Origin: Escherichia coli
GTDB lineage: Bacteria > Pseudomonadota > Gammaproteobacteria > Enterobacterales > Enterobacteriaceae
Direction: 5' to 3' (one strand)
DNA length: 64,000 nt
Assembly: GCF_003018255.1 (NCBI RefSeq)
Contig: NZ_CP027440.1
The first letter of the stretch is position 1, and every line of letters begins with the position of its first letter. Below the pieces are notes generated by a model. That model was not told where the DNA came from. It made no database searches and saw only the letters and a list, made by a program, of their open reading frames with translations. Made by a program: the position numbers and the translations under genes. This document shows, piece by piece, positions 4,790 to 43,571 of this stretch.

Positions 4790-5185
4790 ATGTGTGAAGG
4801 ATATGTTGAAAAACCACTCTACTTGTTAATCGCCGAATGGATGATGGCTGAAAATCGGTGGGTGATAGCAAGAGAGATCTCTATTCATTTCGATATTGAA
4901 CACAGCAAGGCGGTTAATACCCTGACTTATATTCTGTCGGAAGTCACAGAAATAAGCTGCGAAGTTAAGATGATCCCTAATAAGCTGGAAGGGCGGGGAT
5001 GCCAGTGTCAGCGACTGGTTAAAGTGGTCGATATCGATGAGCAAATTTACGCGCGCCTGCGCAATAACAGTCGGGAAAAATTAGTCGGCGTAAGAAAGAC
5101 GCCACGTATTCCTGCCGTTCCGCTCACGGAACTTAACCGCGAGCAGAAGTGGCAGATGATGTTGTCAAAGAGTATGCGTCGTTAA
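4790..5185 (+). CDS. caiF: transcriptional activator of the cai and fix operons
   Basis: C-terminal 131 aa of ORF 4685..5185 (MCEGYVEKPLYLLIAEWMMAENRWVIAREI...) match CaiF; the longer ORF is an upstream in-frame extension. Confidence 0.85.
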   Translation: MCEGYVEKPLYLLIAEWMMAENRWVIAREISIHFDIEHSKAVNTLTYILSEVTEISCEVKMIPNKLEGRGCQCQRLVKVVDIDEQIYARLRNNSREKLVGVRKTPRIPAVPLTELNREQKWQMMLSKSMRR

Positions 5186-10938: not shown

Positions 10939-12456
<1,518 letters not shown>

Positions 12457-12704
12457 TTAATTCCACTGTGAAAACGAATATTTATTTTGCGTTCCCGTTT
12501 GTTTTATTTTTGTTAACATTTAATATAATTATTATTAACCTCGTGGACGCGTTAATGGCTAACTCATAATGGGTATTCAATAAGCTGCATTCTGTGATTG
12601 TTATCACATTTTTGTTTCGGGTGAATAGAGGGCATTTTTTTCGTTAATTTTGATTATTAATCAGTTTGTTATGCTCTGTTGTGAGTAAAAAAATAGCATC
12701 TGAC

Positions 12705-12739
12705 TTTCAATATTGGTGATCCATAAAACAATATTGAAA
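12705..12739. promoter_or_regulatory. CaiF-type site: 11-bp inverted repeat tttcaatattg N13 caatattgaaa
   Basis: Perfect inverted repeat with 13-bp spacer read in sequence; matches the published description of CaiF sites (inverted repeat separated by 13 bp). Confidence 0.7.
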
Positions 12740-12761
12740 ATTTCTTTTTTCTACGCCATGT

Positions 12762-12796
12762 TTTCAATATTGGTGAGGAGCTTAACAATATTGAAA
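12762..12796. promoter_or_regulatory. second CaiF-type site, same 11-bp inverted repeat with 13-bp spacer
   Basis: tttcaatattg gtgaggagcttaa caatattgaaa; second copy about 57 bp after the first. Confidence 0.7.
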
Positions 12797-12820
12797 GTTG
12801 GATTTATCTGCGTGTGACAT

Positions 12821-12835
12821 TTTCAATATTGGTGA
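12821..12835. promoter_or_regulatory. third copy of the tttcaatattggtga box without an inverted partner
   Basis: Box sequence identical to the other two, about 59 bp after the second; no caatattgaaa partner follows. Confidence 0.5.
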
Positions 12836-12926
12836 TTAAAGTTTTATTTCCAAATTAAAGGGCGTGATATCTGTAATTAACACCACCGATATGAACGACG
12901 TTTCCTTCATGATTTCTGGAGATGCA

Positions 12927-13697
12927 ATGAAGATTATTACTTGCTATAAGTGCGTGCCTGATGAACAGGATATTGCGGTCAATAATGCTGATGGTTCATT
13001 AGACTTCAGCAAAGCCGATGCCAAAATAAGCCAATACGATCTCAACGCTATTGAAGCGGCTTGCCAGCTAAAGCAACAGGCAGCAGAGGCGCAGGTGACG
13101 GCCTTAAGTGTGGGCGGTAAAGCCCTGACCAACGCCAAAGGGCGTAAAGATGTGCTATCGCGCGGTCCGGATGAACTGATTGTGGTGATTGATGACCAGT
13201 TCGAGCAGGCACTGCCGCAACAAACGGCGAGCGTACTTGCTGCAGCCGCTCAGAAAGCAGGCTTTGATTTGATCCTCTGTGGCGATGGTTCTTCCGACCT
13301 TTATGCCCAGCAGGTTGGTTTGCTGGTAGGCGAAATCCTTAATATTCCGGCAGTTAACGGCGTCAGCAAAATTATCTCCCTGACTGCAGATACCCTCACC
13401 GTTGAGCGCGAACTGGAAGATGAAACAGAAACCTTAAGCATTCCGCTGCCTGCGGTTGTTGCTGTTTCCACTGATATCAACTCCCCACAAATTCCTTCGA
13501 TGAAAGCCATTCTCGGCGCGGCGAAAAAGCCAGTCCAGGTATGGTCGGCGGCGGATATCGGTTTTAACGCAGAGGCAGCCTGGTCAGAACAACAGGTTGC
13601 TGCGCCGAAACAGCGCGAGCGTCAGCGCATCGTGATTGAAGGCGACGGCGAAGAACAGATCGCCGCATTTGCTGAAAATCTTCGCAAAGTCATTTAA
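12927..13697 (+). CDS. fixA: electron transfer flavoprotein beta-subunit homologue (carnitine reduction)
   Basis: ORF 12864..13697; FixA sequence begins [18 protein letters not shown] at 12927 (256 aa). Confidence 0.92.
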
Positions 13698-41977: not shown

Positions 41978-43571
41978 TTCGCCCCGGTAGTTTTTCAATC
42001 ACGGTAAACAGCAGAAAACAGAGTAGCAGCAGAATTAACGCGGTGACCGCGCCGTCCTGGCTGCGATAGGAGCCAATTTGCTGGTAGAGATAAAACGGCA
42101 GGGTGCGGAAATCATCGTTACCGAACAACGCCACCACGCCAAAATCACCAATCGATAGCACACAAGCAAAGGCCAGTGCCTGCGCCAGTGGGCGTTTAAG
42201 GGCGCGCAGCTCCACCACTTTTAAGCGTGACCAGCCTTCAATGCCCAGCGACTGACACAACATACTGTAACGCGCGGTGATATCGCGCATCGGGTTTTCC
42301 AGCACTTTCAGCGCATAAGGGATCGCCATTAACGCATTGGTGAAAATCACAATGCCGTCAGCAGATTGTGGCAGGCCGATAGTGTTGTTGAGCAGTAAAA
42401 AGAAGCCGGTAGCCAGCACAATCCCCGGCATCGCGAGGATCAACATGCCGCTCATCTCCAGCGCCTGACCCGCCAGCATTTTCTGCCGCGCCCGCAGTTC
42501 GCGACTGCTCCATAGCAGCATCATGGTCAGCACTACGCATAATACGCCTGCCGCCAGCGCAATACGCAACGAGGTCCACAGCGCCTGCCACAGCACCGGC
42601 TGCGCCAGCACTTCCGGCAACTGGCGATTTATCCCATCGACGAGCACCGCCAGTAACGGTGGCAGCAACAGCAACAGCGCCAGCACAATTAACACCGTGT
42701 CGCAAATGCGGCTATGCAGACGATCGTCCGGGTCGCGCCAGCCTTGCAGCAGCGTAGTGCCGGGCGCAATGGCCTTACTCAATCGCTGACTCAACAGCAC
42801 CAGCCCAAGGCAACACACCATCTGGATCAGCGCCAGCATCGCCGCGCGGGCAGGATCGTAGTCGTAACTCAGCGCCTGATAAATAGCCAGCTCGATAGTC
42901 GTCGCTTGCGGACCGCCGCCCAGCGACAACACGGTGGCGAAGCTGGCGAAACAGAGCATAAAGATAAGCGCGGCAACCGGCGGGATTTGTCGCCGTAACC
43001 ACGGCCATTCGACGAAGCGGAAAAAATGCCAGCCGCGCATCCCAAGCTGGGCGGCAAGCTGACGTTGTTCCCCGGGAATGTTTTCCAGTGCCTGGAGTAA
43101 TAAGCGGCTCGCCATCGGCAGATTAAAAAATACATGCGCCAGCAAAATGCCTTGCAGGCCGTAGGGCGAAAACGTCCACTCCAGACCAAGCGATTGCCAG
43201 AGCGATGCCAGCCAGCCCTGGCGACCATAGACGCTAAGAATGCCGAAAACAGCAACCAGCACCGGGAGGATCAAGGTCATGGCACACAGACGCAACAGCG
43301 CCAGCCGTCCTGGAAAGCGCCTGCGGTAGAGGGCGCGGGCAAGGAATATCGCGGGCACGACAGAGAGCAGCGCCGAGAGAAACGCCTGCCAGAAGGAGAA
43401 GCGCACCACATGCCACAGGTAGCTGTCCTGCCAGATTGCCACCCAGTCACCCTGCGGCGCGTTCCACCACAGGGCGAGAAACGCAGCCAGTGCAACCGCC
43501 ACCACCAGCGTGGCGGCGCTTATTCCTGGAATTAACCAGCCGGGAATTAACGGCTGACGGCGCGTTGCCAT
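41961..43571 (-). CDS. thiP: thiamine ABC transporter permease
   Basis: 536-aa polytopic ORF overlapping thiQ and thiB. Confidence 0.93.

Follow-up and report, generated by a model that had tools for sequence, protein, structure and literature searches.

The 64,000-nucleotide window analyzed here, a stretch of the Escherichia coli contig NZ_CP027440.1, carries the divergent caiT and fixA genes and the gene for the regulator CaiF. The caiT coding sequence, first gene of caiTABCDE, occupies positions 10939-12453 on the minus strand and is delimited by its ORF and by the annotation of matching E. coli genomes, the fixA coding sequence occupies positions 12927-13697 on the plus strand, as supported by its translation and by the same annotation, and caiF is found as an ORF encoding a 131-residue protein at 4790-5185, likewise on the plus strand. 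CaiF has been reported to bind two sites, F1 and F2, each of the form 5'-TTTCAATATTG-N13-CAATATTGAAA-3' (Buchet 1999, Mol Microbiol 34:562, via PMC12083890 and PMC3680233), and these two are the only CaiF sites named in the available text of the secondary literature (PMC12083890, PMC3680233). In the window, three modules with CaiF-type boxes sit between caiT and fixA, and the 501 bp around them are matched in 5394 of 5426 complete E. coli genomes. The comparison with the K-12 caiT-fixA region that the initial annotation had proposed places the same three modules at positions 42181, 42238 and 42297 of MG1655, with identical boxes throughout, including both arms of F1 and F2. A search against Rfam at permissive thresholds returned chance matches only, far under the gathering scores, so that no known RNA element accounts for the conservation described below.

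The exact 11-mer TTTCAATATTG occurs five times within 127 bp, at 12705 (plus), 12729 (minus), 12762 (plus), 12786 (minus) and 12821 (plus), and a motif search recovers no further exact copy in the 64-kb window; when one mismatch is allowed, the observed count of matches is equaled in none of 100 dinucleotide shuffles. Four of the five copies form two perfect inverted repeats with gaps of 13 nt each, at 12705-12739 and, identical in type, at 12762-12796, which match the described CaiF architecture as the initial annotation had held; by this match both palindromes are the known CaiF sites F1 and F2. The fifth copy, hereafter box 3, spans 12821-12831 as an 11-mer and 12821-12836 in its extended form, lies on the plus strand and was delineated by motif search, promoter scan and conservation. 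The left-arm repeat unit common to the three modules is the 16-mer TTTCAATATTGGTGAT, found at 12705, at 12762 with one mismatch and at 12821, and its start-to-start spacings of 57 and 59 bp bear out the pitch of about 58 bp that had been proposed for three modules in the cai/fix control region. Box 3 is also a true half-site, as first described: its 11-bp arm is identical to the four arms of F1 and F2, both of which have an inverted partner at N13, and the position at which its own partner is expected reads TATTTCCAAAT, with 4 of 11 bases matching. The right arm of F2 and box 3 together form another perfect inverted repeat, with a gap of 24 nt. Past the left arm, the F1 and F2 units are 79% identical over 29 nt, and Tandem Repeats Finder reports no array in the region because the three units have only the box in common, F1 and F2 additionally sharing the right arm and about 18 nt. 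Elsewhere in the window, a CaiF arm with one mismatch (TTTCGATATTG) is found at 4888-4898, within the caiF coding sequence itself, most likely by chance.

The spacers of both palindromes hold CRP-like sequences, namely GGTGA-N6-AAACA at 12715-12730 in F1 (center 12722.5) and GGTGA-N6-TAACA at 12772-12787 in F2 (center 12779.5), and each palindrome is, to judge from this nested element, a CaiF-CRP-CaiF composite. The corresponding stretch at box 3 reads GGTGA-N6-TTTTA, in which the right half retains 2 of 5 bases and a complete CRP site is absent. F2 is the one palindrome kept in every lineage that has any. On the cai side, a consensus CRP-type site, TGTGATTGTTATCACA, whose half-sites are conserved in the E. 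coli clade, lies at 12593-12608 (center 12600.5), which corresponds to -41.5 relative to the presumed cai start. The putative cai -10 hexamer, CATTAT (ATAATG on the plus strand), maps to 12566-12571 on the minus strand within a block conserved in 15 Escherichia, Citrobacter and Salmonella-group sequences, and would imply a cai start near 12559. This geometry agrees with the sites quoted for the cai promoter at -41.5 and -90.5, the latter being the FNR site, in the accessible part of the literature (PMC3680233). The quoted FNR site at -90.5 (PMC3680233) coincides with an AT-rich FNR/CRP-like sequence, TTAATTTTGATTATTAATCAG, at 12644-12665, of which AATCA alone is conserved across the E. coli clade.

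Within the presumed cai promoter spacer, a candidate fourth CaiF-like box, ATTCAATAAGC (12575-12585), was rejected, as the E. coli clade conserves only GGGTATTCA. The latter is invariant in that clade at 12571-12585 and in E. coli runs on as ATTCAATAAGC, which agrees with the CaiF arm at 7 of 11 bases; the equivalent stretch in Serratia, Hafnia and Edwardsiella is TTCAATAATCCGTGA and looks like the box with GTGA after it. What is conserved here could be a CaiF box that has diverged within the cai core promoter.

On the fixA side, a consensus scan identifies a single sigma-70-like promoter on the plus strand of the intergenic region, GTGACA-17-TAAAGT, with the -35-like hexamer GTGACA at 12814-12819 and the -10-like hexamer TAAAGT at 12837-12842, the latter also delineated by the clade alignment. 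A single T and the 16-mer box 3 make up the entire 17-bp spacer of this predicted fixA promoter, and the placement of box 3 between -35 and -10 holds for the predicted GTGACA-17-TAAAGT arrangement, conserved in the E. coli clade. An alternative -10-like hexamer on the same strand, TTTTAT at 12842-12847, emerges from the cross-genus conservation of T(T/A)TTAT and lies 5 nt downstream of the E. coli-clade candidate; given the two -10 candidates, box 3 could span either -28 to -13 or about -33 to -18. RegulonDB v8 places the CRP pair of fixAp like that of acsP2. From the predicted promoter and the K-12 coordinates, transcription of fixA would start on the plus strand at 12849, give or take a few nucleotides (about 42325 in K-12), that is, about 7 nt past TAAAGT, which sets the nested CRP sites at -69.5 and -126.5. 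The register of this start is supported by the acsP2-like placement of the CRP pair, by the cai sites at -41.5 and -90.5 and by the distance between the mapped cai and fix starts, which we take to be 289 bp. Further downstream, a fix leader element, GCGTGATATCTGTAATTAACAC (12862-12883, plus strand), was recognized by the pattern rTGrTAnnTnTAT, conserved across genera; the pattern returns equally far downstream of the lone box in each of the 20 genera compared, and in those with long leaders it takes the form GAATCATGGTATTTCTATT.

Within E. coli, 5313 of 5389 genomes (98.6%) have exactly the same sequence over positions 12811-12850, which cover the box and core promoter, whereas for a control 40-mer taken elsewhere in the intergenic region an identity of 99% or more is reached in only 11 of 4734. 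A similar picture is obtained from an alignment of 15 caiT-fixA sequences from Escherichia, Citrobacter, Salmonella, Phytobacter and related genera, referred to here as the E. coli clade, in which most of the spacer is scrambled and full or nearly full conservation is limited to a few blocks: the cai -10 region, the CRP site, F1, F2 and a continuous block that reads TGTGACA, T, box 3 and TAnnGT. In this last block TGTGAC is invariant in all 15 sequences and followed by A in 13, box 3 carries single-base changes in only two, and the -10 element reads TAnnGT in 14 and CAATGT in one Citrobacter. The fixed first T, A and final T around a variable middle are the pattern expected of a real -10 element. 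The -35-like hexamer is absent outside the E. coli clade.

To extend the comparison, a genome scan with CaiT yielded 80 loci, from which 69 caiT-fixA intergenic regions were extracted; together with that of the window they make 70, of which 55 belong to Enterobacterales. A partnerless TTCAATATTGGTGA pointing at fixA is present in 54 of these 55 regions (with at most two mismatches, and in most cases none), and the sole exception, Entomohabitans, has a decayed box at the expected place. In Enterobacteriaceae and Morganellaceae the lone box lies 91-108 bp before the fixA start codon, with 138 bp in Providencia heimbachae. The number of complete palindromes that accompany it, by contrast, varies from none to three: two in the E. 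coli clade, one in Pluralibacter, Atlantibacter, Yokenella, Trabulsiella and Providencia, three in Proteus and none in Serratia, Leminorella, Hafnia, Edwardsiella, Limnobaculum and Budvicia, where the lone box stands alone. Among the 55 regions, no genus has a right-arm partner at the box 3 position. With 20 genera represented by one sequence each, the 14-mer box carries 1.92 bits per position, and exactly 6 nt after it the hexamer T(T/A)TTAT carries 1.76, as compared with 0.44-0.69 in the flanks. The distance from F2 to box 3 stays within 59-61 bp in almost every genus, and the gap to the right arm of F2 drifts between 24 and 26 nt. When about 400 kb of sequence from these loci was searched for the box with at most one mismatch allowed, 140 matches were obtained, every one of them between caiT and fixA, and the Shewanella, Ferrimonas and Campylobacter loci had none. 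No other cis element of the cai-fix region is as conserved or phylogenetically as widespread as the lone box.

Several lineages depart from the arrangement seen in E. coli. Nine Proteus loci carry three palindromes and the lone box at 282, 223, 164 and 105 bp before fixA, four modules in exact 59-bp steps that constitute the largest array found and suggest that it grew as one 59-bp unit was duplicated in tandem. In the six genera that have the lone box only, its distance to fixA is 263-348 bp, with about 230-310 nt of patchily conserved non-coding sequence between the module and the gene; in Serratia, Hafnia and Edwardsiella, where this stretch is about 230 nt long, no conserved small ORF was found, and the long separation would call for either a long leader or a second, fixA-proximal promoter. 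Budvicia aquatica carries a direct tandem of two complete lone-box modules (TTCAATATTGGTGAT-N5-GTATT), which lie 338 and 311 bp before fixA, 27 bp from each other, an arrangement found in no other genus compared. Consensus promoter scans of the Edwardsiella and Proteus regions returned no more sites than shuffled sequence.

The CaiF protein encoded in the window scores 28.5 bits with the Pfam family PF07180 (CaiF_GrlA), for which the cut-off is 25, and in the PDB GrlA is its sole relative (4kt5, E = 0.001). Edwardsiella, the sole lone-box genus examined for CaiF, encodes a PF07180 orthologue that is 50% identical to the CaiF of the window (E = 2e-49) and retains four of the residues reported to be needed for the CaiF response (PMC12083890), namely Y11, N43, Y47 and R75; such a conserved reading head fits the invariant box. 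Upstream of the Edwardsiella caiF gene, a degenerate box with two mismatches (TGCAATATTCGTGA, locus L083, 3080-3093) was treated as a chance match, as the downstream hexamer is missing. It lies 59-72 bp before caiF, between that gene and a divergent hydrolase gene, and could hint at autoregulation. GrlA, in turn, is described in the available text of three studies (PMC4856446, PMC4730234, PMC10877973) as an activator that acts at the LEE1 P1 promoter from a non-dyad site within the 18-bp spacer between -35 and -10, in a manner called MerR-like. We confirmed the P1 sequence, TTGACA-18-TACACA, upstream of ler in O157:H7. GrlA at LEE1 P1 would thus be an in-family precedent for a partnerless CaiF box in a promoter spacer.

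Taking these observations together, we lean toward a reading in which box 3 is a functional single-protomer CaiF site in the fix core promoter, with F1 and F2 acting as upstream CaiF-CRP composites. One CaiF protomer, together with its co-activator crotonobetainyl-CoA, would bind TTCAATATTGGTGA between the positions of the fix promoter -35 and -10 and aid RNA polymerase by direct contact or by reshaping the spacer, as proposed for GrlA at LEE1 P1. At F1 and F2, two inverted CaiF boxes would each clamp a weak CRP site, centered at about -126.5 and -69.5, respectively, and so provide an upstream activating array common to the divergent cai promoter. This array would be the evolutionarily variable part of the system, as the lone box is constant in 54 of 55 loci and the palindromes number from none to three. 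Box 3 is then probably the promoter-proximal working site of CaiF; we infer from sequence that CaiF occupies the box, in which direction it acts there, how it activates and where exactly transcription begins.

Several considerations weigh against this reading. The two-site literature, as far as its available text goes, implies that the original footprints had no third site, at least for CaiF alone, that is, without the CoA co-activator or RNA polymerase. CaiF by itself may fail to occupy an isolated box in vitro, and crotonobetainyl-CoA was identified as a co-activator after those footprint experiments. Furthermore, the predicted fix spacer already has the optimal length of 17 bp, so that a realignment of the GrlA/MerR type would be unneeded, and a constraint unrelated to CaiF could account for the invariant GGTGA extension. 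The two possible registers of the box, given the -10 candidates 5 nt apart, and the distance of 263-348 bp to fixA in the lone-box genera, where consensus promoter scans did no better than chance, likewise count against it.

Among the alternatives, box 3 could extend the array as an auxiliary co-operative site that stabilizes CaiF and CRP at F2, for example via oligomerization or DNA wrapping, with no direct role toward the polymerase. The regular pitch (57/59 bp in E. coli, 59/59/59 in Proteus), the spacing of 59-61 bp to F2 in nearly all genera and the perfect inverted repeat formed with the right arm of F2 across 24 nt all speak for such a role, which we nevertheless consider unlikely: in six genera the lone box has no palindrome beside it with which it could co-operate, the box is locked at 6 nt to the downstream hexamer rather than to upstream features, and its gap to the right arm of F2 drifts over 24-26 nt where the palindromes keep a strict N13. 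The term auxiliary, offered in the initial annotation, therefore understates an element that lies in the predicted fixA core promoter and, in six genera, is the only box of the CaiF type. The other term offered there, vestigial, is contradicted by the 1.92 bits per position over 20 genera, the presence in 54 of 55 loci and the 98.6% identity in E. coli. Indeed, that box 3 should be the functionless relic half of a decayed third palindrome, as the missing right arm might suggest, strikes us as extremely improbable, given that the box is near-invariant while the neighboring intergenic sequence is saturated with change, that its identity in E. coli stands against polymorphic flanks and that an intact palindrome at the third position, the undecayed state, is present in no genus compared.

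Sites inside a core promoter occupy the classical position of repressors, and box 3 could accordingly be a negative or limiting operator at which CaiF competes with RNA polymerase and thereby caps fix expression relative to cai or sets a threshold. In Proteus, a TTGAAC-18-AATAAT sequence directly upstream of the box would even place it at the start site; the consensus scan of that region is, however, no richer in sites than shuffled sequence. The lack of a -35 hexamer outside the E. coli clade is what one expects of an activator-dependent promoter, the fix promoter is in use as a positive, CaiF-dependent biosensor, and the homologue GrlA activates from a spacer in the available accounts, all of which makes a limiting role quite improbable. 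It is also conceivable that box 3 is not a CaiF target at all and is instead a stretch of core promoter or spacer that is conserved because RNA polymerase, or some other factor such as CRP at the half-site GGTGA, reads it. The identity of its arm would in this case stem from the duplication history of the ~58-bp unit, as the 79% identity of F1 and F2 over 29 nt suggests a tandem duplication, and sigma-70 has been reported to sense spacer sequence and conformation; moreover, the secondary literature, in its available text, names F1 and F2 only (PMC12083890, PMC3680233). Against this, the 14 nt invariant in 20 genera are those of the proven CaiF arms, which is hard to attribute to polymerase preference, the motif is confined to caiF-type loci, and the right half of a CRP site is absent (TTTTA, 2/5). 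A spacer is ordinarily under less constraint than any other part of a promoter, and we judge it very doubtful that box 3 escapes CaiF altogether.

F1, F2 and CaiF itself are already known, and the sequence of the control region is that of K-12; what appear to be new are the partnerless box within the predicted fixA core promoter and its status as the most conserved and widespread element of the cai-fix region. Its placement and conservation suggest, by analogy, that CaiF may act at the core promoter in the manner of GrlA. A bolder proposal, which we put forward tentatively and hold to be possible though doubtful, is that the partnerless box is the ancestral and primary CaiF operator, that binding of a single protomer in the core promoter would be the family-wide mode of CaiF and GrlA, and that F1 and F2 would be later CaiF-CRP-CaiF enhancers added in Enterobacteriaceae and Morganellaceae. 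The current picture of CaiF with two palindromic sites underlies RegulonDB-type annotation and the design of carnitine biosensors based on the fix promoter. If box 3 acts as we suggest, the minimal CaiF-responsive promoter would consist of the box and a -10 element, far smaller than assumed and useful for biosensor engineering, and a common mechanism would extend to the small and poorly understood CaiF/GrlA family, including the master virulence activator of EHEC and EPEC, in a form testable in K-12. The natural series of none, one, two or three palindromes before one lone box furthermore offers a model for how upstream activating arrays join promoters.

Box 3 can finally be set beside the known systems closest to it, beginning with F1 and F2 themselves. 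All three modules have the same TTTCAATATTG arm and the same GGTGA extension of the left arm, lie on one strand of one intergenic region and follow a pitch of about 58 bp; box 3 differs in that it has neither an N13 partner nor a complete CRP site and lies in the predicted core promoter instead of at about -70 or -127. Operators of the MerR family (MerR, CueR, SoxR) likewise place an activator site between -35 and -10, yet they are dyad-symmetric, have spacers of 19-20 bp and bind dimers of an unrelated fold, and box 3, with no dyad, a 17-bp spacer and a regulator outside the MerR family, fits none of these features. Should the hexamer at 12842-12847 be the true -10, box 3 would span about -33 to -18 and resemble activator sites that overlap or replace the -35 element, such as class II CRP sites at -41.5 and the pho boxes of PhoB, as most genera would then have no -35 hexamer, the situation at activator-dependent promoters. 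Those sites, however, are dimeric or tandem and centered farther upstream, whereas box 3 is a single unit of 14-16 bp that reaches within 6 nt of the -10.

A further parallel is LEE1 P1 of EHEC and EPEC under GrlA (Islam et al. 2011, Mol Microbiol 79:468). The spacer of LEE1 P1 is a suboptimal 18 bp, the shortening of which reportedly bypasses GrlA, as against the 17 bp of the predicted fix spacer, and the two spacer sequences have no convincing resemblance to each other. Unlike CaiF, GrlA is also described in the available text with neither upstream palindromes nor a partnership with CRP. GrlA and CaiF nevertheless belong to one Pfam family, CaiF_GrlA, and the GrlA target, as described in that text, lacks dyad symmetry like box 3 and lies between a TTGACA -35 hexamer and the -10, where the predicted fix promoter, with GTGACA, would place box 3 as well.
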